Assembly (NCBI GenBank): GCA_963753345.1
Contig: CAVWBU010000046.1
Coordinates: 1-57,254, forward strand
Length of the DNA: 57,254 nucleotides
Source of the DNA: an uncultured Fibrobacterota bacterium
GTDB lineage: Bacteria; Fibrobacterota; Chitinivibrionia; Chitinivibrionales; FEN-1185
Direction of reading: 5' to 3'
A program made the translations under genes and the position numbers. Below, in pieces: positions 6,302 to 37,393 of the stretch; position 1 is the first letter of the stretch; each line of letters opens with the position of its first letter. The notes below the pieces were generated by a model, which ran no database searches, was not told where the DNA came from, and saw nothing but the letters and a program-made list of their open reading frames with translations.

Positions 6302-6327
6302 TAGCGAGTCGCGTATGTTGATGCCGA

Positions 6328-6364
6328 CGTGCGGAACAGTTTTCTGTTCCGCACGATTTTTTTT
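6328..6364 (+). terminator. Rho-independent terminator
   Basis: CGTGCGGAACAG-TTTT-CTGTTCCGCACG perfect stem followed by a T run. Confidence 0.85.
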
Positions 6365-6432
6365 GCGGCGCAAAATGACTTGTTTTCACGTTCACGGATT
6401 GGAGCTGAAGAGGAAGTAGATTCCCGTTCTCT

Positions 6433-7122
6433 CTAAAAACAGTACGCCACGCCCCCCTTGACTCCGCCATTCCTTGTGGTTCCCAGAGAGAAGTGCAATG
6501 TCGGAATATTCCGGCATTCTGCTCTCCGGCCATCACGTGCCTGTGACTTTGAGACCAGAGCATCGGTGGACAACAGGACGCAAGAAGTGGTGGAAAGGAT
6601 GCCTTCGGAGAGGAGTACGGCCGGAGGCGGCGCTCCGCCGCCGCCGGCGGCGATGCCAAGGATGATCGCAAGGAAGGCATTCGACAGACCAAAAGAGATC
6701 CAACCGGGGATGCGAAGCCCGAGGAGCCCGTGAGCGCCGGTATGGCGTGAAGACGATCCGCCCGCCGCAACAACAGGAACGGCTATGTCACAGAGCAACT
6801 GCGACGTGATTCCGAGTGGAGCGGATGGCACCGCATCATCTGATTGTGACCGGGCGATTGTTGAGCCGATGCTCAATCCCAGGATCACGGGCGAGAATAC
6901 AAAACCTGCGACGCCTGCGCCGTTGCCCCATCCGGTCCATTGAGAACCTTCGACGTTTGCCCCGGATGTTGTCAAAGATCCGCCGGTCTGAGACGATGGT
7001 TCAACGCATTCGCCATTCACGCAGACCCGGTTGCCCTTGCAATCGGTATCTTTGGTGCATTGACCGAAAGTTTCCATCGAGGCCAGCATAACCATTAACA
7101 AAACAGGAATTATTCGATACAT
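6433..7122 (-). CDS. Membrane protein with N-terminal Cys-rich motif
   Basis: Signal peptide, CTKDTDCKGNRVCVNGEC, several hydrophobic segments; AGGAGG upstream. Confidence 0.75.
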   Translation of the reverse strand: MYRIIPVLLMVMLASMETFGQCTKDTDCKGNRVCVNGECVEPSSQTGGSLTTSGANVEGSQWTGWGNGAGVAGFVFSPVILGLSIGSTIARSQSDDAVPSAPLGITSQLLCDIAVPVVAAGGSSSRHTGAHGLLGLRIPGWISFGLSNAFLAIILGIAAGGGGAPPPAVLLSEGILSTTSCVLLSTDALVSKSQARDGRRAECRNIPTLHFSLGTTRNGGVKGGVAYCF

Positions 7123-8013: not shown

Positions 8014-8958
8014 CTACGCCTTCTTCACCTGCCCCTCCACCTTCGATTTCTGTATCGTGTTCATGGCAGTCGAAACCAGCGCCGCGACATCGGCGAGGTT
8101 GGACGGCAGGATCATGGTGGTGCTCTGTTTTGCGATATTCCCGAACTGCGTAATGAACTGTTCCGCAACCCTGAGCTGCACGGCCTCGAACCCGCCCGCT
8201 TCGTTGATGGATTGCGCGACCTTGCGGATTCCCTCGGCCGTGGCCGCCGCGACTGCCAAAATGGCCGCGGCTTGGCCTTCGGCCTCGTTGATGCGCTGCT
8301 GCTTGGTTGCCTCGGACGCCTTGATCACCTTCTGCTTTTCGCCCTCGGCGTTGTTGATCGCCGCATCGCGCGTTCCCTCGGACTGCAGGATAACCGCGCG
8401 TTTTTCCCGTTCGGCCCGCATCTGTTTTTCCATGGCCGCCAGAACGTCCTGCGGCGGGGTGATGTTCTTGATTTCGTAGCGGAACACCTTGACGCCCCAC
8501 GACTCGCTCGCCTTGTCGAGCTCCGTGACCACGAGCATGTTGATTTGTGAGCGCATCTCGAAGGTGCGGTCAAGCTCGATCTTTCCGATTTCGGAGCGCA
8601 GCGTGGTTTGCGCAAGCTGTGTGATGGCGAACAGCAGGTTCGCAACACCGTAGGATGCACGCTGGGGGTCGACGATCTTGTAGTACAGCACGCCGTCGAC
8701 AGCGACCTGCACGTTGTCCCTGGTGATGCACACCTGTTCGGCGATTTCAAGCGCGGTCTCCTTGAGGCTGTGGCGGTAATGCACCGAGTCGAAGAACGGC
8801 CACAAGAAGTGAAAGCCCGCGTTCTTGACTTCGTGGAAGCGGCCGAGCCGTTCCACCACGTACGCGCTCTGCTGCGGGATGACGATGACGCATCGGGAAA
8901 GCACGATAAGCACGAGCACAACCGCAACGATTGCAACGACGATAATTCCTCCGGACAT
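8014..8958 (-). CDS. SPFH/band 7 (paraslipin, QmcA-like) protein
   Basis: VVERLGRF, ITRDNVQVAVDG, AMEKQMRAEREKRA. Confidence 0.95.
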   Translation of the reverse strand: MSGGIIVVAIVAVVLVLIVLSRCVIVIPQQSAYVVERLGRFHEVKNAGFHFLWPFFDSVHYRHSLKETALEIAEQVCITRDNVQVAVDGVLYYKIVDPQRASYGVANLLFAITQLAQTTLRSEIGKIELDRTFEMRSQINMLVVTELDKASESWGVKVFRYEIKNITPPQDVLAAMEKQMRAEREKRAVILQSEGTRDAAINNAEGEKQKVIKASEATKQQRINEAEGQAAAILAVAAATAEGIRKVAQSINEAGGFEAVQLRVAEQFITQFGNIAKQSTTMILPSNLADVAALVSTAMNTIQKSKVEGQVKKA

Positions 8959-8980
8959 GGATTCCTCCCGGGAAAAATGG

Positions 8981-9418
8981 TTACTTTGGTTTTACGATGA
9001 ACTTGAGTCCGTCGCGCGCCGCAACAATACACGCGGCGTTCGTCTCGAGCGGAGCCGTCCCGTCGTTGCGCGCCTGCCAGGTGCTTCCGCGGAGTTCCAC
9101 CTTGCCGGTGGCGCCGGGAGCAATGGTCTCCAGCGCGCGTCCGGTCTCGCCCACGAACTCCTGCACGTCGGCCTTGGGCGTGGAACGGGCGACTTTTCTG
9201 GCAAGCGGCCTGCGGAAAACGGCGATGGAAAATATTGACAAGAAGGCAAACAGCAGCATCTCGATCCACGCGGTGTGAATCACCGGGGCAAGCGCGCCGG
9301 TGACAATGGCAGCCGCGCCCACGAACATGAGGTAGAACCCGCCCGGCGTCAGCGTCTCGGCGGAAAGCGTGATGATCCCGAACACCAGCCACACCCACCA
9401 TGCGACTTGCATATGCAC
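8981..9418 (-). CDS. NfeD family protein
   Basis: Hydrophobic N-half, GKVELRGSTWQA OB-fold motif; adjacent to the SPFH gene. Confidence 0.92.
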   Translation of the reverse strand: MHMQVAWWVWLVFGIITLSAETLTPGGFYLMFVGAAAIVTGALAPVIHTAWIEMLLFAFLSIFSIAVFRRPLARKVARSTPKADVQEFVGETGRALETIAPGATGKVELRGSTWQARNDGTAPLETNAACIVAARDGLKFIVKPK

Positions 9419-9603
9419 TCCAGCGGTTATGTGTCTCGCACAACAACGTATATCTTGCTCTATCGAAAATAGATGGTTGTAGGGGGAAAAGGAATATCAT
9501 CAATCGATAATAAAAACTTGCTGGTGGGAGCATCTGGAAATCAAGAGCAAGTGTTGGGCGTTCCCCCTTCTGCAGAGGCGCATGGTAAAACAGAAGAAGT
9601 CTT

Positions 9604-10189: not shown

Positions 10190-10357
10190 GCTACTTGAAC
10201 GGCCCAAAACGAACCCCCAATTATCTTTCTTAAATATTAGGAATGGGTTTTCTGGCAGAAAACACTTTCTTTGGCCAGGCATTGACGGATCACGGAATGC
10301 AGTGTATGTTTATGATGATGGCACACTGTTCCGGACACTGGCCACAAGGAGGACCAC

Positions 10358-11969
10358 ATGCGTCTGATTAAAACAGCACTGGGTATGCTGGTTGCAGGTG
10401 TTGTGTTCGTATCGTATTCGACCGAGTGGGTCAAGCAGAACCCGCTTCCGCTCCAGTATTCGCTCACGCCGTATCATTTTCTGAATTACTACGGCATATC
10501 GGCGGCGGATTCGCTTCGCGCATACGGGTTTGGCTCGCAGTACGGCGATAGTGCATTGCTCTACTCCGAAGACGGCGGGAAAACCTGGGCAGCGCGGGTC
10601 ATACCCGGCCTGTGGTACAGTTTCTGCGGAGCAAGAGTCTTTTCCTGCAGCACCGTGGTCGTTGCCGGACACACGCTGTGGCAAAATACGGACATCGGCG
10701 CGATTTTCAGGACAAATGACGCCGGAAGAGATTGGAAGATCATCCCCCTGCCGGTCAAGGATGAGAATCCTTCCTTTGCCAGCACGATCACCAACGCCTC
10801 GTTTGCCGACAGCCTGAATTACTTCTTTGTCACTGGCCGCTATATTGACGCATCCTGGGACTACCAGCATTTTCTTACGGCAACGCATGACGGAGGCGTG
10901 TCGTGGTCGGAAACCCTTCTGCCTGCAGACCTCCAACAGTATGGGATATCGGTATCCGACATTTGTTTTGTTGATTCGTGCACCGGTTGGTTTCTCACCC
11001 AAAACACGCTCTGGAGCACAGGCGATTGCGGAACAACCTGGCAGCAGCGGCTTTTTACAGGGTACGGTCCAACAAGAATCCGTTTTCTGGATCGTCAGAA
11101 CGGGTGGCTTATCGGTCAGGCCGTTTTGCACACCGCCGACGGCGGCAAGACCTGGACCCAGCAGGTGCCCGGCGTTCCCTCTCAAAACGCCATCAAGTTT
11201 GCAGATCCGCTTAACGGATGGATTTTCTTGAGCGACAACCGGATCCTTCACTCGCGCGACGGAGGAAAAACGTGGCCGTTCCAATACAAGATCACCGGAT
11301 ACGACGGGCAGATCAACGACGTTGCATTTGTGAACCCGGCTTGCGGATGGGCAATCGGCAACGGCGGGATAATCCTTCACACAACGGAATTGCCCGTGCC
11401 GGTGATCGACAGCCAGTTTGCGTACCAGAACATCTTTAATGTGCCTTTTGTGTTTCACTATCCGGGATACCTGGACTCCCTTTCCTACGATTACACCATT
11501 CACTATGGCCCCCAGGGCATGACGATCAGCAAGGGCGGAACCATTTCGTGGTCGCCGGGCACCGATTCCTCGTTTCTCCAGCTGGTCGAGCTTGTCGTGC
11601 AGGGCGCGTCCGGCCAGAAGGATTCGGTTTCGTTTGTCGTGGCGGTGAATCAGGACAAGAAGCCGTTTACCGGGGTCAAGGACAACGTGAAGACACTTTC
11701 GTACGGCAAAAGCGGGATTGCCGCGGTCCACAATGTAAACGGCGGCATAAAATTCTATGTGGCCAAGAATGCGACATCGGCCGCGATCTTCGACCTTCGC
11801 GGGGCGCGAATTGGCAACGCTTGCCGCGTCACGATCAGCGCAGACCGGGTCTGAGTTTTCCTGGGACTTGCGGGAAAATTCACGGGGAAAAGCGGCGATG
11901 GGGACGTACATCATCCGGGTGTTGTCAAACGGCTCGGCGCTTGCGGAAAAGTTCACCATTGCGCCATAA
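10358..11969 (+). CDS. Secreted YCF48/BNR-repeat beta-propeller protein with FlgD/T9SS-like tail; frameshift at 11801-11804
   Basis: Repeated (S/T)xDGGxTW; main ORF stops at 11854, but removing one G from GGGG gives IFDLRGRELATL...GTYIIRV...KFTIAP ending at 11969. Confidence 0.8.
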
Positions 11970-12037
11970 GAACCTCCTGCAGACAAAGCTCTTGGTGGGG
12001 GCACCGCTTCGTGGTTTCCCGAGATAGTAGAAGAGTT

Positions 12038-12206
12038 GGGCGTTTCCCTCCCCCTCACTTCGCTCGGGGTCGGGTCGGTCAGGGTTAGGTCTCCCTCCGG
12101 GCTCGGCTGTTCGCCTCGTTGCCGGACCGCCCCTAGTCGCCTCCGGCGGGGGTTCGGCCGGCAATCCCGCTATGGGCGGGACCACTTCGGTCCACCTAAC
12201 GCGCGG
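12038..12206 (+). repeat. Family A structured repeat, copy 4
   Basis: GGGCGTTTCCC...GGTCCACCTAACGCGCGG. Confidence 0.82.
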
Positions 12207-19801: not shown

Positions 19802-19892
19802 CACCACAGAGACACAGAGAGCACAGAGAAAAGATATATCTTGCCGTCAACTATCAACTATCAACTATCAACTGTCAACCGTCAACTGTCAA
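19802..19892 (+). repeat. CACAGAGA-type run plus seven heptamers (CT/CRTCAA)
   Basis: CACCACAGAGACACAGAGAGCACAGAG; CCGTCAA (CTATCAA)3 CTGTCAA CCGTCAA CTGTCAA; the last unit contains the gpmI stop. Confidence 0.88.
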
Positions 19893-21400
19893 CTTATAAT
19901 TAGCGACTCGCCCGTCATTTCTGCCGGCTTGGCAATGCCCAGCAGCTCGAGCATAGTGGGCGCGAGGTCGCAGAGCCTGCCATTGTCGTGAAGTCGCACC
20001 TTGCCGGCGCCGATGAGCATGAGCGGCACCGGGTTTACCGAATGCGCCGTCATGGGCGAGCCGTCGGCGAGCTTCATCTGCTCGGCGTTGCCGTGGTCGG
20101 CCGCAACAATGCAGGCGCCGCCTTTGGCGAGCGCCGCCTCCACCACATCGTGCACGCACGTGTCGACGGTCTGGACGGCCTTGACGGTCGCATCAAACAC
20201 GCCTGTGTGGCCCACCATGTCGCAGTTGGCGAAGTTGGTGATAACCACGTCGTACTTGTCGGATGCGATCGCCGCCGCCAGCTTGTCGCGCACCTCGAAG
20301 GCGCTCATTTCCGGCTTGAGGTCGTAGGTGGCCACCTTGGGGCTGTTGATAAGAATCCTGTCTTCGCCCGGGAACGGATCGTTTCTCTGGCCGTTAAAAA
20401 AGAATGTGACATGCGCGTATTTTTCGGTCTCGGCGCAACGGAGCTGTTTGAGACCGTTATTGGCAAGCACTTCCCCCAGGATGTTGGTGGAGGGGATTTC
20501 GGGATATGCCTCGGTGAAGTTGCCCTTGTCGTAGTAGTGGGTCATTGCCACAAAATGGATCGAGTGCTTGACCACAGGGAATTCCGAAAACGCGGACTCC
20601 ACGATCGCCATGGTGAGTTGGCGCGTGCGGTCGAACCGGAAATTAAAGAAGATGACAACGTCGTTTGCGCCGATGCCGGTAAAATTGATGAGCCGCGGCT
20701 TGACGAACTCGTCGTTTTCGCCTGCGGCGTACGCGTCGTCGATCGCCGCCTGCCAGCTGTCTACCGCCTTCCCCTTGCCCTGCATGAGCGCGCGGTAGGC
20801 GAGCTCCGTGCGGTCCCAGCGCTTGTCGCGGTCCATGGCGTAGTATCTGCCGATCACCGTGGCCACTCTACCGATTCCTGTTTTATCAATCCCGCTCTGC
20901 AGAAGCGCCAGGTGCTCGCGCGCCGATTTCGGAGGCGTGTCGCGGCCGTCGGTGATGGCGTGCACGAGCACGTTGGAAAAGCCCCGCCGTTTGCACAGGT
21001 CAAGCAGGGCGATGCAGTGGCGCGTTACCGCGTGCACGCCCTCCTCCTGGATGAGGCCGATGAGGTGGAGCGTGCTTTTGCGCTTCTTCGCCTCGTCGAT
21101 GGCGCCGCAGAATGCCTTGTTCGAAAAGAAGTCGCCCTCGGACACCGACTTGTCGATGCGCGTGAGGCTCTGGTACATGATGCGGCCCGAGCCTATGTTG
21201 AGGTGTCCCACCTCGCTGTTGCCCTGGTATCCCTCGGGCAGCCCCACGCTGAGCCCGGACGTCTGAATGAGCGTGTGCGGGTTCGCGGCCAGGTATGCGT
21301 CTGTAAAGGGCGTGGCGGCGACGTGGATCGCGTTGGTGTCGTCGCTCTTGCCCTGTCCCCAGCCGTCGCGGATGATAAGGCACACGGGTCTTTTCTTCAT
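19889..21400 (-). CDS. gpmI: 2,3-bisphosphoglycerate-independent phosphoglycerate mutase
   Basis: DGWG, GNSEVGHLNIG, DGRDT, GRYYAMDRD, AETEKYAHVTFF, DMVGHTG, ADHGNAE. Confidence 0.97.
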   Translation of the reverse strand: MKKRPVCLIIRDGWGQGKSDDTNAIHVAATPFTDAYLAANPHTLIQTSGLSVGLPEGYQGNSEVGHLNIGSGRIMYQSLTRIDKSVSEGDFFSNKAFCGAIDEAKKRKSTLHLIGLIQEEGVHAVTRHCIALLDLCKRRGFSNVLVHAITDGRDTPPKSAREHLALLQSGIDKTGIGRVATVIGRYYAMDRDKRWDRTELAYRALMQGKGKAVDSWQAAIDDAYAAGENDEFVKPRLINFTGIGANDVVIFFNFRFDRTRQLTMAIVESAFSEFPVVKHSIHFVAMTHYYDKGNFTEAYPEIPSTNILGEVLANNGLKQLRCAETEKYAHVTFFFNGQRNDPFPGEDRILINSPKVATYDLKPEMSAFEVRDKLAAAIASDKYDVVITNFANCDMVGHTGVFDATVKAVQTVDTCVHDVVEAALAKGGACIVAADHGNAEQMKLADGSPMTAHSVNPVPLMLIGAGKVRLHDNGRLCDLAPTMLELLGIAKPAEMTGESLIIS

Positions 21401-21633
21401 GACGAAGCGCTCCTTAAGGGGTGAAAGGTCGATCGATGGTGTTGCGTCACGCCGCGTCGGCCATCATCCTGCGATGGGAAAATGCGGGAGACAAATATCG
21501 GACACGAAGCTGATGCGCGTAGATTTTAGTGCCTATAAATATAGCAAATATCATATATTACAGAGCAACATATATTGGGCAAAACAGTGGTTCTTGATTA
21601 GCGGCTATCACCACACTTCACTTCTTTGCGATT

Positions 21634-21658
21634 CAATCCGAAATCCGCAATCCGCAAT
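21634..21658 (+). repeat. Heptamer run (CAATCCG)n
   Basis: CAATCCG AAATCCG CAATCCG CAAT just before the sheath-like gene. Confidence 0.75.
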
Positions 21659-21669
21659 GGTAAACACCA

Positions 21670-23313
21670 GTGAAACCACCTAAAAAGTCTCCCATAAAAT
21701 CGTTTAACGTGACGCTCGGCACTGCCGCGCCCGGGATGTCCCCGGCCGCCCAGCCAGGCCGCTGGAACATCCTCGTCTGCTCCGACCTGGGGTTCACATC
21801 CAAGAATCCGCAGCAGGTGCGGATCGCGGAATGGAACGAGTTCGTGTCTTGCCGGGGCGTTGTGTTGTCGGGAACTGTGCCGGATATTTTGACGGGCGGA
21901 GACAAGCCCTTGTATGTGGAACTGGCGGTGCGCTCGATGAAGGATTTTTCTTCCGACGCCCTTGCTCAGAACGTGCCTCTGTGCGCGGCCTTTTCAACCG
22001 CACTTTCGGCGCTGCGCGGCCTGCTCGGCGGAAAAATCGGCAGCGCGGATGCGGACGCGGTCATTGCAAAAGCGGGACTGCCGCAATCGGAAAAACAGCG
22101 CCTCACGGCTATGCTCGGACCTGCAAAGGGGACCGAACAGCCGAAACAGACGGCCACCGCTGCAAAATCGCCGGTGGACAGAATTCTTTCCATGGTGGAT
22201 GCGAACCCTGCGCCTGCGCAAACGAAAAATGCCGGGAAGCGCGGCTTTGCTGAAGCGCTGGCCGAATCGGTTTCCGGTCCGCGGGAGGATTTCAACAGGG
22301 ACGAACTTTCCGGCTATATTGACGAATGCGAACAACGGATCCGGGCACAGGTGGCCGCAATCGAAAACCTGCCGTTTTTCGCTCTTCGAAAGGCGTCGTG
22401 GACTTGGCTGATGACGCTTGCCAAGGCGGTGGGCAGGAAGCCGGAGGCGCAGGTGACCGTTTACTCGGCCGAAAGCAACGACATGCCGGACACCTTCGGC
22501 CGGGTGCTCGGCGCCTGCGTTGAACAGGGATTTCCGCCGGACATTGTGGTATGGGACTTCGACGTCTCCTTTACAAATGCTCATGTCAAGGGCATGACCT
22601 CGGTCGCCGAGACTGCCGACCTACACAAATGCATGGTTATCGCCCCGCTTGCCGCCGATGAACCCTTGCTGTCCGGCATTTCCGGCCGTCAAACCATTGC
22701 ATATCTTTTCGAGGATACCCGGTTCCTTCCCTATAAAAAACTGCGCAGCAGCCCGCACGCAAGGTGCCTGTGCCTGTGCGCGCCGCCGCTTGCCGGCGGT
22801 AGGGCGGCGTGGTTCGCGGCGCTCCGGTGGGCCGAAATGTTGCTGCAGGAGAACAACCCTGTTGCGGCGCGCGGGCAGGCCGCGCGCGGAGAAAGTATTT
22901 TTTCAAGCGGGCCGGTGTTTGCCTGCCGCATTGCGCCGGGAGTCGCGACGGAGGCCGCGGCCATGGGGCTCACGTTCTTTGAGGAACCACCAACAGGGCT
23001 TTTCAAAGCGGCCACCGTGGTGTCGGCCGAGGCCGCCGACGCGGGCTTTACGAGCCTCTGCTTTAACCTTTTTGTCAATCGCGTGATCCGCAGGTGCGGC
23101 GCATGTCTGCTTTCTGCCGGGTCCGGCGCGAAACGGGACGAGATCGCCGCGGTCCTGCAGGAACAGGTGCAGCGCGAATGCGCCGCGTGCGGCATTGCCT
23201 CGGGCGGCGACACCGTGGGCGTTCGCGAATCCGAAGGCCGCGCCATCGAGGTTTCCGTCGATTCCGAAACTGAAATTGCCGGGCATCCTGTCCGGTTTTC
23301 GTTTTCAATGTAA
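21670..23313 (+). CDS. Divergent T6SS contractile sheath-like protein, TssB(VipA)-TssC(VipB) fusion
   Basis: N-terminal VPDILTGGDKPLYVELAVRSMKDFSSDALAQNVP resembles TssB; IRAQVAAIENLPFF...KASW...YKKLRSSPHARCLCL resembles the TssC core; recognised by eye. Confidence 0.68.
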   Translation: MKPPKKSPIKSFNVTLGTAAPGMSPAAQPGRWNILVCSDLGFTSKNPQQVRIAEWNEFVSCRGVVLSGTVPDILTGGDKPLYVELAVRSMKDFSSDALAQNVPLCAAFSTALSALRGLLGGKIGSADADAVIAKAGLPQSEKQRLTAMLGPAKGTEQPKQTATAAKSPVDRILSMVDANPAPAQTKNAGKRGFAEALAESVSGPREDFNRDELSGYIDECEQRIRAQVAAIENLPFFALRKASWTWLMTLAKAVGRKPEAQVTVYSAESNDMPDTFGRVLGACVEQGFPPDIVVWDFDVSFTNAHVKGMTSVAETADLHKCMVIAPLAADEPLLSGISGRQTIAYLFEDTRFLPYKKLRSSPHARCLCLCAPPLAGGRAAWFAALRWAEMLLQENNPVAARGQAARGESIFSSGPVFACRIAPGVATEAAAMGLTFFEEPPTGLFKAATVVSAEAADAGFTSLCFNLFVNRVIRRCGACLLSAGSGAKRDEIAAVLQEQVQRECAACGIASGGDTVGVRESEGRAIEVSVDSETEIAGHPVRFSFSM

Positions 23314-23328
23314 CGCGGGAGAAGGAGC

Positions 23329-24318
23329 ATGAAAAAGACCCTTTTGTCAATTGCCACCGTTGTGTGCGCCGCAGCGCTGTGCGCGTCGGCCGGACCGCGG
23401 GCCGCCGCGACCGAACAATTCGTGAAGCACGCTGTGCGTGCGGGCGAGAGCGTGAGCCTCATCTGCATCGATCATTTCGGCTACTGGAGCGCGGACATGG
23501 GCAAGACGATTGCCAAGGACAATCCGTCGCTCAAGGACATCAACGTCATCGCCATCGGGCAGGTGCTTGTGCTGCGCAACCCGAATTACAAAGGAGAAAA
23601 GCCGGCCCAGGCCGCCGCTCCTTCCGCGGCCGAGCAGAAAGTGGCAGCGTCGCAGGGCGTGGTCACGTGCGTGGAAGGCGACGCGCTGGTGATCCCGAAG
23701 GCCGGCGCAAAGCGGAAGCTTTGCGTCAACGCCATCGTGTATCCGGGCGACGTGATCGTGACGCAGGCCAACGGTAGGGTGGAGATCATTGTCAACAGGG
23801 AAACCGTGGTGAGGCTCAAGGAGAACACGCGGCTCACGGTGGAGGCCTTCCGCGACGCGCAGGCCGGCGCGGGAAAGACAAAGATGGGATTCACCCTGGG
23901 GTCGGTGTGGGCCAAGATAAAGCGGTTCCAGGACAAGGTGAGCCGCTTCGATCTCGAGCTGCCCACGGCAATCGCGGGCGTCCACGGCACGGTGTACGAG
24001 GCGTCCGTGGAAAAGGACAGTTCCTCCGAAGTCAAGGTGTACACCGGCGAGGTCGCGGTGAAGAACAATCCGGCGGTGCATGCCCCCACGGGGGGCGAGG
24101 TGGGCGAGGTGAGCGGCCCCGGCGAAGTGGCGGGCCCGAGCGAGGTGAGCATGGACCAGTGGGTGACCATCGTGCGCGACATGCAGAAGATCCGCATTGA
24201 TAAAAAAGGAAAGCCGAAGCCGGTCGAGGATTTCAAGCGGGACGAGGCCGACTCGTGGGAAAAATGGAACACCGAGCGCGACAGGCGCATCGGCGAACTT
24301 TTCGAGGAGAGTGAGTGA
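23329..24318 (+). CDS. Secreted LysM + FecR domain protein
   Basis: Signal peptide; HAVRAGESV...IAKDNPSLKDINVIAIGQVL (LysM); GDVIVT...RLKENT...PTAIAGVHGT...VYTGEV (FecR). Confidence 0.85.
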   Translation: MKKTLLSIATVVCAAALCASAGPRAAATEQFVKHAVRAGESVSLICIDHFGYWSADMGKTIAKDNPSLKDINVIAIGQVLVLRNPNYKGEKPAQAAAPSAAEQKVAASQGVVTCVEGDALVIPKAGAKRKLCVNAIVYPGDVIVTQANGRVEIIVNRETVVRLKENTRLTVEAFRDAQAGAGKTKMGFTLGSVWAKIKRFQDKVSRFDLELPTAIAGVHGTVYEASVEKDSSSEVKVYTGEVAVKNNPAVHAPTGGEVGEVSGPGEVAGPSEVSMDQWVTIVRDMQKIRIDKKGKPKPVEDFKRDEADSWEKWNTERDRRIGELFEESE

Positions 24319-26717
24319 TGACGTTCAAAAAGGCCGCAGTGCTCGGCGGCGGCACCGTGCTGCTCACGGCGGTGATGTTCTTCAAGCCGCTCAAGTTTGT
24401 GGAAAACGTCTTCTACGACCTGAATTTCGCCTTCACAAAAGCGACCGCGGTGTGCGATTCGGTGGTGGTGGTGGGCCTCGACGCGGAGAGCATCAGCGGC
24501 GTGGGCACCTGGCCGTGGCCGCGCGCGGTGATCGCGCAGCTCATAAACAGCCTGCAGGCGTGCTCGCCGCGCGTGGTGGCGCTCGACATCCTGTTCCCGC
24601 CCAAGCGCGAGGACCCGGCGGGCAACGACAGCCTCGCGCGGGCATTCGCAAAAGTGAACAAACTCATCCTGCCGTTCCGCGCAACCTTCCGCGCGGGCGG
24701 CGCGGACTCGGCCGAGGTCCCGGTCCCGCCGGCGGTGTTCAAACAGCGGTTCCTTTTGGTGAAGCAGAAGGCCGGACTCGACAACGTCACGTTTTTTTCG
24801 GCAAACAGGATCGACGCCTCCGACTCATTGTTCACCGCCTCCGCGACGCAGAGCGGCGTCATCAACGTCACCACCAACAAGGTTGACCAGAAACTGCGCG
24901 AGATCGTGCACGTCATCAAGGCGGGCGACGAGTACTATCCGTCGTTCGGGTTGTGCGCCGCCGCCGCCTTTCTCGGCGTCAAGCCCGACGAATTCGTGCT
25001 CGACGGCAAACCCCAGGTTAAGCTCGGCGACCGCGGCGTACCCATTTCCCGCTATGCGGGCAGCACGCTTATCCACTATCGGGGACGGAGCGGCACGGTG
25101 CGCACCCTGCCCGCGGTGAAGGTGCTCACCGGCGCAATCGACCCCGCGCTCCTGCGCGACAAACTGGTCTTTGTGGGCGTCACCGATGCGGGCGCGGGCG
25201 CCGATTTCTTCACCACGCCCGTGGGCTCCCAGTTCCCCGGCGTGGAGCTGTGGGCCACCGCGGCGATGGATGTGCTCCAGGGATCGTGGGTGAGGGACCT
25301 TTCGGGCATAGGAGCATTTGTCAATATCCTTTTCGTGTTTCTCGTATTTCCGGGGCTCGCGCTCGTGATCCCGCCCAGGAAGAAGGCGCTGTATATCGCG
25401 GCCGCGTTTGTCCTGGTGGCGGCGAGCATCGCGCTGGGCTGCTACCTGTTCAGCCACGCTCAAGTGTTCTGGAACCCCGGCGATCATGTCTACGCCCTGG
25501 TCTTCTCCATTGTCTATGTGGCCGCGCTGGCCGGCGCGCCCGCGCTCGTGGAGCGCGCGGCCATCGATTTTGAGGTCCCGGCCGCATCGGACCGCGATTC
25601 CCTTCCGCCGCCGCGCGAGGAGGACTTCATCCGCGCGCTGCCGCATGCCGAGTCCGCCGCGCATGTCGCGAACAGGCTGGGGCGGGCGCGGGGAGGGGCC
25701 GCGCAGGCGCCAGGAGAAACGTTTTCCGGCACCGCGGCCGAGGAGCATCTGTATGCAAAGGAAGGGCCGGCGGTAAGGCCCGGCGGCGACACAAAGGCCG
25801 ATGTGCGTCTGACGCCGGAGCAGGCGGCGAGTTTTCAGAACCTGGCGGGCGGCAGGATCGTTAAATTTCTGGGCAGCGGCGGCATGGCCGACGTGTACCT
25901 TGTGTGGAACCCCCGCCTCGAGGTCTATCGCGCCGTCAAGGTGATAAAGCCCAGCCAGCCGGAAAATCTGCTCGCGCGGTTTGAAACCGAAATACGCATT
26001 CTGTCAAAGCTCCAGCATCCCAACATCGTGCAATTTTACAATGTGGGAGAGTGGCATTCGCTTCCGTATATCGAGATGGAATACGTGCCAGGGGCGGCGT
26101 TCGACGACGTCCAGAATAAGTGCCCCATCTTGAGCCCACAGGAAACCGCGGCCGTCGGAATCCTTGTATGCCGCGCGCTCGAGTACGCGCACCGCAAGTC
26201 CGCCACCATCTACGGCACCACCTACAAGGGCGTGATCCACCGCGACCTCAAGCCCGCGAACATCATGCTGTCGAAGAGCGGCCGCGTCAAGCTCACCGAC
26301 TTCGGCATCGCGCGGCCGCAGGAAGTGAGCATCCACACGCTCGACACGGGCGCCGTGGTCGGGACGCTGCCGTACCTTGCGCCCGAGCAGTTGACCGGCG
26401 GGACCACCACCGCGCGCGTGGACATCTACGCGCTCGGTCTCACGCTGTACGAGTTTCTCACGGGCGAGCGCGCCTTTCCGCAGACCATGCTCCCCGAGCT
26501 TCTTTCCGCAAAGTCAAGCGGACAGTTTAAGCCGCTTCCGGCGGCGGTTCCCGCGGCGCTTTCCGCCGCGGTGGTGAAGGCGATGTCGGTGCAGTCGGCC
26601 GACCGGTACGAATCGGCCGCGGCCATGGAGCACGACCTCGAAAAGCTGCTGCGGATGCCGGGCGCGGCCTCCGGGTACGGCATTCTCGAAAACCTTGTCA
26701 AGCGTTACTATTCATAA
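24318..26717 (+). CDS. CHASE2-domain membrane Ser/Thr protein kinase
   Basis: WPWPRAVIA, VVALDILF, FPGVE (CHASE2); TM helices; GSGGMADVY, AVK, HRDLKPANIM, DFG, YLAPEQ; TGATG coupling to the upstream gene. Confidence 0.92.
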   Translation: MTFKKAAVLGGGTVLLTAVMFFKPLKFVENVFYDLNFAFTKATAVCDSVVVVGLDAESISGVGTWPWPRAVIAQLINSLQACSPRVVALDILFPPKREDPAGNDSLARAFAKVNKLILPFRATFRAGGADSAEVPVPPAVFKQRFLLVKQKAGLDNVTFFSANRIDASDSLFTASATQSGVINVTTNKVDQKLREIVHVIKAGDEYYPSFGLCAAAAFLGVKPDEFVLDGKPQVKLGDRGVPISRYAGSTLIHYRGRSGTVRTLPAVKVLTGAIDPALLRDKLVFVGVTDAGAGADFFTTPVGSQFPGVELWATAAMDVLQGSWVRDLSGIGAFVNILFVFLVFPGLALVIPPRKKALYIAAAFVLVAASIALGCYLFSHAQVFWNPGDHVYALVFSIVYVAALAGAPALVERAAIDFEVPAASDRDSLPPPREEDFIRALPHAESAAHVANRLGRARGGAAQAPGETFSGTAAEEHLYAKEGPAVRPGGDTKADVRLTPEQAASFQNLAGGRIVKFLGSGGMADVYLVWNPRLEVYRAVKVIKPSQPENLLARFETEIRILSKLQHPNIVQFYNVGEWHSLPYIEMEYVPGAAFDDVQNKCPILSPQETAAVGILVCRALEYAHRKSATIYGTTYKGVIHRDLKPANIMLSKSGRVKLTDFGIARPQEVSIHTLDTGAVVGTLPYLAPEQLTGGTTTARVDIYALGLTLYEFLTGERAFPQTMLPELLSAKSSGQFKPLPAAVPAALSAAVVKAMSVQSADRYESAAAMEHDLEKLLRMPGAASGYGILENLVKRYYS

Positions 26718-26736
26718 CTGTCCGGGCGCGGGCAAC

Positions 26737-28401
26737 ATGAGCTATTACTATCTGGAAGTGCTCCGGGGTTCCGAAGTCGGCCGGCGCTATTTGCTTGCCG
26801 ACGGCGCCACGAGCGTGGGCAGGAGTTCCCAGAACACCCTCGCGCTCCATTCGGCGGAGAAGAGCGTGTCGGGGCACCATGCCATCATCTACAAGAGCGG
26901 CGACCGGATAAGCCTGCAGGACCTGGAAAGCACCAACGGCACGTTCGTGAATGAGGAGCGCGCAAGCGAGCGCGAGCTTGCCGCGGGCGACGTCGTGGGG
27001 TTCGGCAAGGCCGGCCCGCGGCTCAGGCTCATCGCATCCGACAAGGAGCTTCCCCTCGAACCAGGGAAGGCGCAGATGGCGTCGGCCGAATCGACGAGCA
27101 TCCGCACCGTGGAAGACGAGCTGCAGGCGTTCGGGAACAGGGAGGCGCCCGAGGGCACGGGCAAGGAGGATCTGGAGCTCATCACCAAGGTGCGTCTCAG
27201 GATGCCGAAAGAGGGAGCCGGGTTTTCTGGCCCTTCCGCGACCATGGACATGGAAAAGAAGATCCTCGAAAACAAGCTCGGCGAAAGCGACATGCGCCAC
27301 CTGATGCGCGACGGTAAACGGCTTGACAGGATCATCGACCGCGGCAACATCGGCACCGCGCAGGCGTCGATGCTCCGCACTGCGCACGGCGCGCACGCGC
27401 AGTCGAACAAACGGTGGCTATTAATTCTGGGGTGCGTAGTGGCGGTGTCGGCCGTGGCGGTTTCCTTTTTCGCTATTCGGGCGTACCAGTACAAGGCGCT
27501 TTTGTCAAGGGGCATGTCGCTCCGAGCCACGCTGGATTCGTACGAGACGCAGATCGCCCAGGCGAACAAAGACCCGGACGCCAACAAGCGCAGGCTCGAC
27601 TCGCTCATCGGCGAGCTCGACAAGGCAAAGAAACAGCTCGCGGCCGTCAAGCAGGACGTGCGCCAGAACGACTACGGCAGGTTTTATTCCGACCCGCTCG
27701 AAAAGACGATCGACCAGGTGCTCATGCGCTTCGGCGAGACCGACTACCACATCCCGCAGGAGATGGTCTCGCGCGTCAAGTACCACGTCTCGGTGTACTC
27801 GGGCGTTCTGCACCAGACCATCGCCAAGTACGTGGGCCGCAAGGAGCGGTATTTCCCCATGATCCGGCGCGTGTTCCGCGACAACAAGCTGCCCGAAGAC
27901 CTTGCCTACGTGTCGATGCTCGAAAGCGGGTTCAACCCGCGCGCGCTGTCACCGGTCGGGGCGCGGGGCATGTGGCAGTTTATGCCCGAAACCGGAAGAC
28001 GCTACGGCCTGCGGGTCGACGCGTCGGTCGACGAGCGGTGCGATCCGGAAAAGGCCACGCTGGCCGCCGCAAAGTACTTCAAGGAGCTCATCGCCATTTT
28101 CGGCGGCCAGAGCTCGGTGATGCTCGCCATGGCGGCCTACAACGCGGGTGAAGGCAGGGTCGTGGGCGCGCTCCGGAAAATCGACAACCCCATGCGCAAC
28201 CGCGATTTCTGGTACATTTACAGAATGGGATACCTTGCCGAGGAAACCAACGAATACATACCGCGCGTGATGGCCCTGCTCATCATCTCCGAACATCCGG
28301 ACCAGTACGGATTTTCGCAGGTTCCCGCAGCTCCCGCAGGACAGGCTGACGCGGAGAATGATTTTATTCCGCTGGATAATATAAAAAATACGGGCAAGTA
28401 G
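26737..28401 (+). CDS. FHA domain - TM - coiled coil - lytic transglycosylase (MltD-like SLT) protein
   Basis: VGRS...SVSGHHA...LQDLESTNGTFVN (FHA); TM WLLILGCVVAV; LESGFNP, GMWQFMP, AAYNAGEG (SLT). Confidence 0.92.
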   Translation: MSYYYLEVLRGSEVGRRYLLADGATSVGRSSQNTLALHSAEKSVSGHHAIIYKSGDRISLQDLESTNGTFVNEERASERELAAGDVVGFGKAGPRLRLIASDKELPLEPGKAQMASAESTSIRTVEDELQAFGNREAPEGTGKEDLELITKVRLRMPKEGAGFSGPSATMDMEKKILENKLGESDMRHLMRDGKRLDRIIDRGNIGTAQASMLRTAHGAHAQSNKRWLLILGCVVAVSAVAVSFFAIRAYQYKALLSRGMSLRATLDSYETQIAQANKDPDANKRRLDSLIGELDKAKKQLAAVKQDVRQNDYGRFYSDPLEKTIDQVLMRFGETDYHIPQEMVSRVKYHVSVYSGVLHQTIAKYVGRKERYFPMIRRVFRDNKLPEDLAYVSMLESGFNPRALSPVGARGMWQFMPETGRRYGLRVDASVDERCDPEKATLAAAKYFKELIAIFGGQSSVMLAMAAYNAGEGRVVGALRKIDNPMRNRDFWYIYRMGYLAEETNEYIPRVMALLIISEHPDQYGFSQVPAAPAGQADAENDFIPLDNIKNTGK

Positions 28402-32867: not shown

Positions 32868-34037
32868 TCACTTTTCAAGTGCGATTTTTCTGAGCGCCCC
32901 GAGCACCCTGGCCCGGATAATTGTTGCAGCAAACTCGGCGGTCGCGGCGGCGCAGCACGAATTCCTCATAGCTTCGTAATTGTCAACAACTTCGAGGAAC
33001 CCGCGGAAGAGGTCGTCCGCGTCTTCGCTTTCCACAATCACGCCGGCGCGGTACTTCTTGAGAAAATCGCCCACGGTCGAATCGCGCGGGCCGTGGTAGA
33101 CAAACGGCAGTCCGAACCCAGCGTAGGTGATGATCTTGGTCGGGAGCGACGACGCCGCGAATTTCCTGCCCAGCGGCGTGAGGGGGTCGCAGGCGTAGCC
33201 GATGTGCATGCCGGCAAGGAATTCCTCGAATTCCCGGTCCGGCAGCAGGGCGTGAACCTTGACAAACGGCTCGGCTGCGGAAACCGCCGGGTCGAAACAG
33301 TGGAACTCAACCGGCCGGCCGGTGGCTTTCCGCAGGGCAAACAGGGCGCGCACAAGGTTGCGCGGCCAGGGAGGCGCGCAGTTGCTCGCCAGCCCGCCCA
33401 GGACCACGTTTATGCCTTTGTCAAGTGCGCGGCCGCCGGGGCGGGGAAGGCGGCGGACGCCGCGGGTCACCACCAAGGCGCTCACGCCGTACCGCTTTTC
33501 GTAGGTTGCGCGCATGCGCTCCGAGATGCAGTCGCGCGAAAGCGCGCGCTTGTAGCAGAACGCGAACGCGCTCCGCACGAGCCGGGCCGGAAGGGGATAA
33601 CTGCAGAGCTCCGTGGCGAGCACGGGGTCGTCGTGCACCGACACGTGGACCGGCACTGCGATGCGCTTCATGACCCGGCGGAAAACGAGCACGCTGTTGA
33701 AATCGAGCACCACCCAGCATACCTGCGGAGAAAATGCCGCGATGTCACGCATCACCGCATCCGCGGCGCGGCGTGATTCGGCAACGGTCAGGATGGCCCT
33801 TCGTGTCCTGGCAAATGGCTCTACAAGCGCGCGAATCGCCGCAGGGGGACGGTTGTTCTTTCCGTCAGGAGGCGGCGCTGCGGAGGGCTCCTTGCGCAGT
33901 GAAATCCACAGCAGTTTGTCTTCAGGGTAGCATTCAAGGATGCTCCGGAGTATAACGCCGCCGCCGAAACCGCCCGTTTTGGGGAACCCGGTGACCACGC
34001 ACAGCCGCGGATACGGGCCTGCGTCAGGAGAGTCCAC
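32868..34037 (-). CDS. Putative GT-B glycosyltransferase
   Basis: [29 protein letters not shown]; coupled to the epimerase gene. Confidence 0.72.
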
Positions 34038-35656: not shown

Positions 35657-36574
35657 ATGTCTGCTGCAATCATTGCCAGTGACCTCACCAAGAAATTCGG
35701 CGGACTCACGGCCGTGAACGGCATTTCGTTTGAGATCGGCGAGGGCGAATGTTTCGCGTTTCTGGGGCCCAACGGCGCGGGAAAAACCACCACGGTGCAG
35801 ATGATCCATTGCGTTTCGCCGGTCACGGCCGGCTCGGTGACCGTGTTCGGCGAGGCCGCGGGACTTGACAACAGGAAAATCAAGGCGTTCACCGGCGTCA
35901 TTCCGCAGGAGATCACGCTCGACTCCGGCCTCACGGTGCACGAAAACCTTTTGGTGTTCGCCCGGTTCTTCGACATCGGGACGCGCGAGGCGACGAAGCG
36001 CGTGGACGAACTGCTGGAGTTCGTGGAGCTTTCGGCAAAGAAGAAGAGCAGGATCGACGAGCTTTCCACGGGCATGAAGCGGAGGCTGCTTGTCGCGCGC
36101 GCATTGCTCAACAGGCCCAGGCTCATCATCGCCGACGAACCCACCACCGGTCTGGACCCGCAGGCGAGGCACCTTATCTGGCAGCGGCTGCGCCTGCTCA
36201 AGAGCAAAGGCACCACGCTCATTCTCACCACCCAGTACATGGAGGAGGCCGAACAGCTCTGCGACCGGCTCGTGGTGATGAACGAGGGCCGCATTCTCAA
36301 GGAAGGCTCGCCGCGCCGGCTGGTTGAGGACGAGATCGGCAGGGAAGTCGTGGAGATACGGGTCGCCAAAGAGGAAGACGGGCGGCTTGTCGCGCTTGCG
36401 GCCGGCTTCAGCCGCGGCCACGAGCGCGCGGGCGATACGCTGTACTTTCACTGCGACAGCGGCCACGAGCTTGTCAAAAGGATAGTGGACCTCGGCCTGC
36501 CCGACGTGCGCAACAGGCCCGCGACGCTCGAAGACGTGTTTCTCAAACTCACCGGCAGGAGCCTTGCGGAATAG
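35657..36574 (+). CDS. ABC transporter ATP-binding protein (NodI-like)
   Basis: GPNGAGKTT, LSTGMKRR, DEPTTGLDPQAR. Confidence 0.93.
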   Translation: MSAAIIASDLTKKFGGLTAVNGISFEIGEGECFAFLGPNGAGKTTTVQMIHCVSPVTAGSVTVFGEAAGLDNRKIKAFTGVIPQEITLDSGLTVHENLLVFARFFDIGTREATKRVDELLEFVELSAKKKSRIDELSTGMKRRLLVARALLNRPRLIIADEPTTGLDPQARHLIWQRLRLLKSKGTTLILTTQYMEEAEQLCDRLVVMNEGRILKEGSPRRLVEDEIGREVVEIRVAKEEDGRLVALAAGFSRGHERAGDTLYFHCDSGHELVKRIVDLGLPDVRNRPATLEDVFLKLTGRSLAE

Positions 36575-36602
36575 GGGACCGTCCCGTGGAAAAGAGCATT
36601 GT

Positions 36603-37370
36603 GTGAACCTTTCGTACAGAATATATTACGTTCTTCTCCGGAACATCATTTCGTACAAGCGGTTCGTGCTCCCCACGTTTCTGGTGAGCCTGGGACAGCC
36701 GCTGTTCTATCTCATCACGTTTGGCGTGGGCATGGGTGCGTACATGGGATACATCGGCGGCAAGCCGTACCTGCAGTTTTTGGTCCCCGGCGTGCTCATC
36801 TCGTCGGTGATGCTGTCGTCGACCTTCGAATGCCTGTACGACACCTTTGTCAAGATGGTGCACGAGCGGCTGTACGATTCCCTCATCGCAACCCCGGTCT
36901 CGGCCGAAGATGTGGTCGCCGGCGATATCGCCTGGGGCGCGCTGCGCGGTCTTCTCTCCGGCGTGCTTATGCTGGTGGTGGCGATGTTCATGGGTGTGCA
37001 CCCGGCCTCGCTCGCGGGCGCGCTCGTGCTCGTGGTCGTGATGGCCTTTGTGGGCGTGCTGTTCAGCTCGCTCGCCATGATCGTGACCTCGTTCGCGCCG
37101 AACTTCGATTTCTTCAACTACTACACCGAGCTTGTCATCACGCCCATGCTGTTCTTTTCCGGCGTGTTTTTCCCGCTCGACAAGTTCCCGCAGTGGCTCA
37201 AGGTTTTCTCCCTCTTCATGCCGCTCACGCACGCGGTCAACATCTCCCGGTCTGCGTTTTCCGGCGAGCCCGTGCCCGGCGCGTGGTGGAGCCTCCTCGT
37301 TTTGCTTGGGCTTGAGATAATTGCTTTTGTCGTGGGTGTCAAGCTGATGAAGAGGCGAGTAGTTTCTTAG
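36603..37370 (+). CDS. ABC-2 permease (NodJ-like)
   Basis: YLQFLVPG, PMLFFSGVFFP, PLTHAV. Confidence 0.92.
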   Translation: MNLSYRIYYVLLRNIISYKRFVLPTFLVSLGQPLFYLITFGVGMGAYMGYIGGKPYLQFLVPGVLISSVMLSSTFECLYDTFVKMVHERLYDSLIATPVSAEDVVAGDIAWGALRGLLSGVLMLVVAMFMGVHPASLAGALVLVVVMAFVGVLFSSLAMIVTSFAPNFDFFNYYTELVITPMLFFSGVFFPLDKFPQWLKVFSLFMPLTHAVNISRSAFSGEPVPGAWWSLLVLLGLEIIAFVVGVKLMKRRVVS

Positions 37371-37393
37371 AGCAAGAATCATAATGGATTTAA

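Follow-up and report, generated by a model that had tools for sequence, protein, structure and literature searches.

In the H1 type VI secretion system (T6SS) of Pseudomonas aeruginosa, a threonine-phosphorylation pathway comprises TagE/PpkA, TagH/Fha1, and TagG/PppA, with TagQRST as input; in the Agrobacterium variant, phosphorylated TssL goes together with Fha (PMC13584744, in part). Remodeling of the cell wall for the T6SS is attributed, in the same part of that source, to MltE in enteroaggregative E. coli and to the L,D-endopeptidase TagX in Acinetobacter. A LysM–FecR protein and a CHASE2 sensor kinase are encoded in the "BiofilmReg" operon of Burkholderia (PMC5192318, in part), and a FecR protein with a CHASE2 adenylate cyclase in Campylobacterota (PMC9239204, in part). 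The PVC and AFP particles, which are extracellular contractile injection systems (eCIS), contain several sheath proteins per machine (PMC8894135, in part). We describe here four adjacent genes in a window of 57,254 bases (the whole stretch of DNA analyzed), contig C46 of the Fibrobacterota genome G000 (4.5 Mb, 55 contigs, 94% complete). They encode a fused TssB–TssC sheath paralogue (gene 1), a LysM-like/FecR-domain protein (gene 2), a CHASE2 kinase (gene 3), and a lytic transglycosylase of the SLT type carrying an FHA domain (gene 4). The best reading of the cluster is that of a modified T6SS threonine-phosphorylation pathway, with the FHA reader and a wall-cutting enzyme joined in one protein, and on balance the cluster probably forms an operon-like accessory or regulatory module of the bacterium's own T6SS.

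The passage of the T6SS through the cell's own wall and its threonine-phosphorylation switch have been studied as separate questions, in a few Proteobacteria. The fusion of a phospho-reader to a wall cutter leads one to expect that the two are directly connected in mechanism. In Creative-Commons and bioRxiv full texts (without supplements), we found no description of an FHA–SLT fusion in a T6SS context, of a CHASE2 kinase tied to a T6SS, or of a natural TssB–TssC fusion or a second T6SS sheath species; a T6SS is reported, in a passing mention of a genome paper, for Chitinispirillum alkaliphilum, a cultured member of the order (PMC4814513, in part). The evidence is that of comparative genomics and predicted structure in uncultured bacteria, and we infer from it every step of binding, phosphorylation, and activation, as well as the role of gene 1.

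Gene 4 and its linkage to type VI secretion genes

Gene 4 matches FHA (2.8e-16) and SLT (PF01464, 1.3e-25, 89.7 bits vs. a cut-off of 21.3) in Pfam. The catalytic region of MltD is matched at 2.6e-30, and the MltD equivalog at 105 bits vs. a cut-off of 508, over the catalytic part only; the Pfam scan gives no C-terminal LysM. In 29 sequences, down to 36% identity, the phosphothreonine-pocket residues G28, R29, S45, H48, and N67 are invariant, as are E396, S397, and the AYNAG motif (Y468, N469, G471) of the SLT domain. The linker between the FHA domain and the single transmembrane (TM) segment is variable except around Thr169, which is present in 29/29 sequences including the distant ones (36%–47% identity). 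From this conservation, Thr169 is a likely candidate for the phospho-acceptor. Both FHA and SLT occur in 116 of the 120 best homologues listed, and the named homologues belong to metagenome-assembled genomes (MAGs) of Chitinivibrionales, Chitinispirillaceae, or Fibrobacteres. A reading of the SLT domain as a secreted T6SS effector was rejected, since the domain is membrane-anchored behind a cytoplasmic FHA domain.

One sample of 201 genomes of the phylum was searched for gene 1, tssF, and gene 4, with gene 4 counted at E ≤ 1e-40 (a threshold fixed beforehand) and gene 1 at E ≤ 1e-5. There are 88 genomes with tssF and 81 with gene 4. Both occur in 79, gene 4 alone in 2, tssF alone in 9, and neither in 111 (the unpublished genome G194 is among the 79; its omission changes nothing). 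Within two families, gene 4 and tssF are found in exactly the same genomes: 15 of 22 in family f15 and 2 of 4 in family f16. Gene 1 is found in 32 genomes, all within the order of the window (22 near full length and 10 partial, some of the latter being of a longer fused type). All 32 contain tssF, and 31 contain gene 4.

Physical linkage gives evidence independent of these presence/absence counts: in at least 13 genomes from seven genera, gene 4 and tssF lie on one contig at most 8 kb apart. In G119 (Pfam on the region), gene 1, the FHA–SLT gene, a radical-SAM gene, and the genes for TssE (gp25), TssF, TssG, and a ClpV-like protein follow each other in one direction. In G137, the FHA–SLT gene is flanked by a kinase and VgrG at one end and by Hcp-TssA-TssB-TssC-TssE-TssF-TssG-ClpV at the other and, in G151, FHA–SLT, ImpA_N, TssB, TssC, Hcp, TssF, and TssG run in a single direction. 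Further kinases stand beside T6SS genes, adjoining tssK-L-M in G000 and vgrG in G137. Gene 4 is very probably dedicated to the T6SS. A second, divergent T6SS, with TssF of 655–657 residues, is found in some relatives (G105:C42, G161:C127, and G085:C193); it is accompanied, at a distance of 7–20 kb on the same contig, by a gene 4-like paralogue of its own (34%–36% identity, frames of 607–669 residues).

The core T6SS genes of G000 are dispersed over at least four contigs other than C46: tssA, tssB, tssC (VipB 7.5e-127, with VipB_2), and hcp on C24; tssE (by tblastn), tssF, and tssG on C30; tssK, tssL, and tssM on C27; and a ClpV-like ATPase on C47. TssC has 506 residues, and the tssB frame called there is cut to 105 residues vs. 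169–172 in relatives. A search of G000 for a canonical TagH (TIGR03354) gives three FHA-only matches, none over the cut-off, one of them being gene 4. There are further genes near these loci. On C27, at about 29.9–32.7 kb (L057:3928-5943 (-) and 6010-6708 (-)), a second Hanks kinase (671 residues) and a PEGA-domain protein are divergent from tssK-tssL-tssM; TssL there has a DotU match only, without a peptidoglycan-binding domain. On C24, at about 271–277 kb (L043:9150-14710), a histidine kinase, a response-regulator/SpoIIE phosphatase, an unknown protein of 442 residues, and a LysM protein of 385 residues are encoded upstream of a sigma factor and tssA-B-C-hcp, at a distance of a few kb.

Gene 1 and the contractile-sheath fold

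The product of gene 1 has no TM segment by hydropathy and is soluble. In Pfam, VipA (PF05591) is matched above its cut-off (4.4e-6, 27 bits vs. 24), and VipB (PF05943) under it (1.3e-4, 21.6 bits vs. 27), although some orthologues pass. The score with the NCBIfam equivalog TIGR03358 (TssB/VipA) is 27.1 bits vs. a cut-off of 97.25. Among 5.8 billion proteins searched, there are 33 relatives at 37%–100% identity, nearly all of 545–590 residues; a fragment with 80% identity is labeled Chitinivibrionales. Against the PDB, a family profile of 40 members aligns its positions 1–117 with residues 1–126 of TssB (5urw_1A, 1.7e-10) and its positions 155–378 with residues 6–247 of TssC (5urw_1B, 1.5e-17). 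With hhalign, positions 163–379 align with residues 21–270 of the canonical TssC of the order (97.7%).

In the AlphaFold model, the mean predicted local distance difference test score (pLDDT) is 84 and the predicted template modeling score (pTM) 0.81, and the low-confidence parts are residues 1–27 and the linker 153–192. Compared with 48,161 solved chains, the model is closest to TssC1 (5n8n_B, Z 25.2, 336 aligned residues, root mean square deviation 5.4) and then to IglB (3j9o_B, Z 24.2, 305 aligned residues, deviation 3.0). Single-chain sheaths (cyanophage, R2 pyocin, AFP, AlgoCIS, and others) align at Z 15–22 over model residues 28–539, and the first unrelated fold appears only at Z 7.9. 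As modeled, gene 1 is a complete contractile-sheath fold, including the C-terminal strands and an N-terminal arm. With single-chain sheaths matched over residues 28–539, the TssB–TssC fusion recreates the one-chain topology of phage-type sheaths. For the C-terminal region, there is no Pfam match to VipB_2 at E ≤ 0.01 and the hhalign alignment ends at residue 379; language-model features indicate VipB_2/VipB clusters for residues 376–547 (score 0.95; 27/30 hits), and the fold alignment extends to residues 538–539.

Two short segments of gene 1 are strongly conserved in the 40 sequences. The N-terminal arm follows the pattern KSxIxSFxVSLG, with S7, I9, S11, V14, and G17 nearly invariant; it would be equivalent to the N-terminal linking strand of TssB, the profile alignment starting at TssB residue 1. 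In the linker, VDRILSMVD is the most conserved short motif of the family (D170 and I172 invariant; L173, S174, and M175 nearly so). In Myxococcus TssC, its counterpart in the alignment is the N-terminal "LLDEILS", and the helix at TssC's N-terminus is the docking site for ClpV in other systems (PMC5048182, in part). Because the TssC of the window genome itself has no similar motif at that position, recognition of VDRILSMVD by ClpV is a lead, unproven.

With the gene 1 profile, 107 proteins are found at E ≤ 1e-30 among 1.84 billion representatives. About 40 are of the gene 1 type (520–570 residues). Beyond these, many are fused proteins of 580–670 residues in which both halves of the profile are matched (E 1e-27 to 1e-50); VipA and VipB are above their cut-offs in the 10/10 sampled, one of which also has VipB_2. 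Gene 1 is thus a branch, reduced in length, of a wider family of fused sheath proteins that is apparently undescribed. One full-length TssB–TssC fusion, in G073 (L042:9866-11620 (-)), stands alone, flanked by an MFS transporter and a BNR protein. A scan with one peptide pattern for gene 1 outside the phylum gives six loci, all in Fibrobacterota MAGs, which is weak evidence of restriction.

The four-gene cluster, its sensor pair, and its layout

The junctions between the genes were read directly, and the sequence-only reading that preceded this analysis had given the same four co-directional genes with gaps of 15, −1, and 19 nt. The TAA of gene 1 (23311-13) is followed by a GGAGAAGGAG motif and the ATG of gene 2 at 23329; the TGA of gene 2 (24316-18) and the ATG of gene 3 (24318) have one base in common; and the TAA of gene 3 (26715-17) precedes the ATG of gene 4 at 26737. 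The genes on both flanks are on the opposite strand (iPGM and NAD synthase upstream, DUF116 downstream), and the four genes are therefore a bracketed unit. The cluster is more than a chance arrangement: the gene 1 matches in relatives are all open frames, free of stop codons, and the order of the genes recurs.

Of the 31 other genomes with gene 1, 20 were compared by tblastn with the four proteins. Those left out are G002, G121, G027, and G115 (contig ends or fragments) and G077, G165, G117, G149, G143, G081, and G067 (weaker matches). Conservation of the neighborhood, which the sequence-only reading had put forward as a check, holds in part. The full order, gene 1-2-3-4, is kept at 9/20 loci. 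At three loci, gene 1 is followed directly by gene 4; at another three, it is followed by an orthologous kinase without CHASE2 (44%–49% identity to residues 363–799), gene 1 being placed there from the earlier 201-genome search and not reported by tblastn; and at five, gene 1 has none of genes 2, 3, and 4 nearby. In family f15, which belongs to another order, the frame directly upstream of FHA–SLT (484 residues) is a diverged relative of gene 1 (hhalign 96%, E 4e-9, DRLLS motif included), and the pairing of genes 1 and 4 is therefore old. A frame of 561 residues upstream of FHA–SLT in G151 was rejected as a relative of gene 1 (hhalign probability 0.05%).

Other genes occur near these loci. In three relatives, a small radical-SAM protein (318–336 residues) is encoded after gene 4 or after the short kinase (L028:7691-8677 (-), L033:9111-10067 (+), and L036:8291-9301 (-)); in G119, its place is after gene 4 and before tssE, and G000 has a homologue with 57% identity on a different contig (C32, near 134.5 kb). 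In G109, a two-FHA protein (L032:8595-9308 (-)) and a calcineurin-like phosphoesterase (L032:7855-8589 (-)) are encoded near a stand-alone gene 1 homologue, on the strand opposite to it; they may be another phospho-signaling neighbor.

Genes 2 and 3 behave as a pair: their orthologues are adjacent at all 9 of the 20 related loci that have either gene. The pair is absent from 11/20 loci and, in three of those genomes, a search elsewhere gave no CHASE2 kinase or FecR orthologue but kinase-domain matches only. By this comparison, the gene 2–gene 3 pair is a facultative sensor insert and not part of the core. Gene 2 has a signal-like hydrophobic N-terminus (residues 4–22) and a FecR domain (residues 141–242, 3.5e-11). 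Gene 3 matches CHASE2 at 9.4e-46 and Pkinase at 3.3e-43 and has, by hydropathy, TM segments at 8–26, 334–352, 361–379, and 394–412 (P0003 numbering), a 1+3 arrangement around CHASE2. In 11 sequences, the catalytic K541, E558, HRD (641–643), N648, DFG (661–663), and APE are invariant, and so is Thr683 of the activation loop. A reading of the kinase as part of an anti-phage defense was rejected, the MAD6/PglW kinase matches being far under the cut-offs and confined to the kinase domain.

The domain calls of the sequence-only reading stand for sheath, FecR, CHASE2, kinase, FHA, and SLT, all found with Pfam, and the kinase and SLT motifs it took to be intact are so, as is the FHA pocket, with invariance in relatives. 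Its LysM call is weak. The gene 2 protein of the window has no Pfam match to LysM even at E ≤ 1; a match occurs in 6/10 aligned orthologues (best 2.4e-4), the family profile matches the LysM part of Kbp at no better than E 0.0036, and the structure model (mean pLDDT 43, from a 10-row alignment) is too poor to judge it.

The region between iPGM and gene 1 contains an AT-rich stretch at about 21521–21580 and, within 21521–21660, a short direct repeat (aatccgc aatccgc) that, together with the AT-rich stretch, makes a candidate promoter or operator. A scan of that region with the sigma-70 consensus gives no promoter match, and the promoter and terminator scan is at the level of shuffled sequences (3 vs. 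1.6±1.6 and 10 vs. 8.4±2.9). The iPGM neighbor is kept in relatives (L033, L036, and L028). The DNA of the window occurs in 13 sequencing runs, all of DNA, from peat, freshwater-sediment, and soil metagenomes of seven studies. Elsewhere in the window, four long frames have no Pfam match at E ≤ 0.001: 8325-9533 (-), 10310-12058 (-), 32868-34037 (-), and 36549-37382 (-).

Table 1. Coordinates of the cluster and its parts in the window
Feature	Position	Strand	Remarks
Intergenic region, common to gene 1 and iPGM (19889-21400, -); presumed promoter region	21401..21669	.	Sequence reading
Gene 1, fused TssB–TssC sheath paralogue	21670..23313	+	547 aa; a gene caller's start lies 13 codons later
Conserved N-terminal arm of gene 1, KSPIKSFNVTLG	21685..21720	+	Residues 6–17; pLDDT <50, disordered in the monomer model
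Linker motif VDRILSMVD of gene 1	22174..22200	+	Residues 169–177; within the disordered linker 153–192
Gene 2, secreted LysM-like/FecR-domain protein	23329..24318	+	329 aa
Gene 3, CHASE2 sensor/Hanks-type Ser/Thr kinase	24318..26717	+	799 aa from ATG; open frame 24315/24318-26717
Gene 4, FHA-linker-TM-coiled region-SLT lytic transglycosylase	26737..28401	+	554 aa; open frame 26695/26737-28401
FHA domain of gene 4 (cytoplasmic)	26809..27006	+	Pfam
Thr169 of gene 4, cytoplasmic linker	27241..27243	+	S-x-T-x-[D/E]-x-E-x-K; candidate phospho-acceptor
Single TM segment of gene 4, between FHA and SLT	27421..27477	+	Hydropathy 2.68 over 19 residues
SLT catalytic domain of gene 4 (periplasmic)	27883..28176	+	Catalytic Glu396 at 27922-27924

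Readings of the cluster and comparison with known systems

In the proposed mechanism, gene 4 would be the central part. Its periplasmic SLT domain would cut peptidoglycan so that the envelope complex of the T6SS can be installed or can fire, and its cytoplasmic FHA domain would read phosphothreonine. With an inner-membrane SLT and an FHA domain in one chain, gene 4 would therefore merge the roles of TagH/Fha1 and of MltE/TagX, which are separate in Proteobacteria. The gene 3 kinase and its periplasmic partner, gene 2, may supply the phospho-signal on the status of the envelope or of glycans; the likeliest acceptor would be Thr169 in the linker of gene 4 itself, or sites of the kinase. Binding of FHA to phosphothreonine would then cluster or activate the cutter at the assembly site. 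The FHA domain could contact its own Thr169 in trans, the autophosphorylated kinase, or, as in Agrobacterium, a component of the T6SS that carries a phosphate, for example TssL. Other kinases beside T6SS genes may signal as well or instead. We lean slightly toward phospho-control through FHA and Thr169, and genes 2 and 3 probably feed that control where they are present. The sequence-only reading had drawn a closed loop from FecR to CHASE2 and from kinase to FHA; such a loop is still a hypothesis. The neighborhood of FecR proteins and CHASE2 sensors on which it drew is documented (PMC5192318 and PMC9239204, both in part).

Several observations weigh against the link with the T6SS or against parts of the mechanism. 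No T6SS gene adjoins the cluster in the window. Because related genomes are not independent samples, the association is weaker than the Fisher values make it look: 9e-43 for the pair of gene 4 and tssF and 5e-5 for gene 1 inside the order. Gene 4 occurs without a tssF match in G107 (97% complete) and G123 (79% complete). The nine genomes with tssF alone are G002 (with gene 1 at a contig end), two genomes from family f10 in which tssF is matched weakly, and six tssF-positive genomes without gene 4 from families f17 and f18. The gene 4 match is SLT-only in some genomes, with FHA confirmed by Pfam in seven relatives and by precomputed labels. Genes 2 and 3, given their absence from more than half of the related loci, cannot be essential to the module. 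Gene 1 has no conserved threonine in the 40-sequence alignment and therefore offers no obvious ligand for FHA; it also diverges much faster than gene 4 at the same loci (25%–60% vs. 50%–84% identity). A complex of gene 1 with residues 1–228 of gene 4 is predicted with a score of 0.02 vs. a mark of 0.32, in a single prediction without controls, and this result counts neither for nor against the mechanism.

Kinase–FHA circuits regulate peptidoglycan hydrolases in Gram-positive bacteria. In general envelope housekeeping of that kind, a Hanks kinase and an FHA domain would control the hydrolase for growth, division, or wall repair, and the T6SS link would reflect shared ancestry. Such circuits are common (7–14 Hanks kinase matches per genome and nine FHA stretches in G000), the presence of LysM-like/FecR and CHASE2 parts hints at a sensor of the wall or of glycans, and the flanks in the window are housekeeping genes, with a conserved iPGM neighbor. 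A housekeeping gene, however, should not vanish with the T6SS, and gene 4 is absent from 111/113 tssF-negative genomes (present in 0/78 in family f10). Its position inside or beside T6SS operons in several genera, and a sheath-fold protein as its upstream partner, make this explanation quite improbable. An independent contractile or sheath-based envelope machine, apart from the T6SS, is more improbable still, to the point of being hardly credible. Gene 1 does form a complete single-chain protomer, as in phage tails, pyocins, and eCIS, and the cluster stands apart from T6SS genes in the window; yet there is no tube, baseplate, spike, or terminator gene alongside, in the window or at the 20 related loci, gene 1 is confined to tssF-positive genomes (32/32), and in G119 the cluster runs straight into tssE-F-G-clpV. 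The stand-alone new envelope system announced by the sequence-only reading is thus not borne out: the cluster co-occurs with and is linked to the T6SS, and its logic matches that of TagE/PpkA-TagH/Fha1 with MltE/TagX (PMC13584744, in part). The underlying idea of a kinase, an FHA domain, and a wall cutter serving a sheath-related machine holds good, the machine being the T6SS of the genome itself.

For gene 1 within such a T6SS module, the preferred role is that of a specialized member of the sheath lattice, or of an assembly factor coupling sheath initiation to this site. Since gene 1 keeps all that a sheath protomer needs, it may join the lattice as a special layer or primer; a structural place in the lattice is a possibility that we hold with some doubt. 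In another version of the same module, gene 1 would be a regulator, either a sheath mimic capping or blocking TssBC polymerization or a decoy or adaptor for ClpV acting through VDRILSMVD, switched by phosphorylation. The conservation of that motif and its alignment with the helix on which ClpV docks elsewhere (PMC5048182, in part) point that way, as do the fast divergence of gene 1 and its shorter, degenerate TssC-like half (VipB under its cut-off, the C-terminal 170 residues without an hhalign match). However, the whole sheath fold and the N-terminal arm are retained, which is more than a docking peptide needs, and the TssC of the genome itself lacks such a motif, which leaves recognition by ClpV unproven. 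A regulatory gene 1 is thus unlikely. The most far-reaching form of the preferred reading, in which a gene 2/gene 3 kinase sensing wall or chitin glycans would license T6SS assembly through Thr169, self-clustering of FHA domains, local opening of the wall, and a gene 1 layer or primer, is likewise rather unlikely to hold as a whole. If gene 1 is a layer or primer, this would be the first T6SS with two sheath species, comparable with the PVC and AFP particles. The extra fused sheath protein raises the question of whether T6SS sheaths have specialized subunits, as in extracellular injection systems, and, through the sensor pair, the poorly understood CHASE2/FecR module gains a functional read-out.

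Compared with the sheath proteins of known systems, gene 1 resembles the paralogues of PVC and AFP in that it coexists with a main sheath and has the sheath fold and homology to TssB and TssC. Unlike canonical TssB and TssC, it is one fused, shortened chain of 547 residues, with VipB and TIGR03358 under their cut-offs, and it is encoded with signaling and wall-cutting genes, whereas tssB and tssC lie beside tssA and hcp on C24. Genes 2 and 3 resemble the pairs of Burkholderia and Campylobacterota, where the gene directly upstream of a CHASE2 membrane sensor likewise codes for a secreted protein with a FecR domain and, in most cases, LysM. Here, however, the output is a Hanks Ser/Thr kinase and not a histidine kinase with a response regulator or a cyclase, the pair stands between a sheath paralogue and an FHA–SLT gene, and the LysM signal of gene 2 is weak.

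PpkA has an N-terminal kinase, a TM segment, and a periplasmic vWA domain. In gene 3, by contrast, an N-terminal CHASE2 lies between TM segments, the kinase is C-terminal, and there is no Pfam match to vWA. As in the P. aeruginosa pathway, the cluster contains a Hanks kinase that sits in the membrane and whose sensor part is periplasmic, a helper protein in the periplasm, and an FHA reader in the cytoplasm; it is likewise tied to the T6SS in genomes, with the conserved Thr169 as the likely acceptor. The helper, unlike TagR, is a LysM-like/FecR protein, there is no phosphatase gene in the cluster, unlike in the pathway with TagG/PppA, and the kinase pair is optional across relatives. Gene 4 is like TagH/Fha1 in its N-terminal FHA domain with an intact phosphothreonine pocket and in its genomic association with the T6SS; it differs in that TIGR03354 gives 38–40 bits vs. 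a cut-off of 120.25, over the FHA part only, and the TM segment and SLT domain replace the C-terminal part. Among family-1 lytic transglycosylases, it passes the SLT cut-off and has the catalytic motifs, without the full length of MltD with its LysM repeats. Gene 4 shares with TagX an anchor in the inner membrane, a catalytic domain on the periplasmic side, and, in several genomes, a place among T6SS genes, but its catalytic type is that of an MltD-like family-1 SLT and not of VanY; nor is it a lipoprotein of the outer membrane, as MltE is. Since the genes fall outside TagH, PpkA, MltD, and canonical TssB/TssC by these comparisons, the parts would function like T6SS accessories without belonging to those families. 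What sets gene 4 apart from both MltE and TagX is its cytoplasmic FHA domain, a fusion by which wall cutting would come directly under phospho-control.

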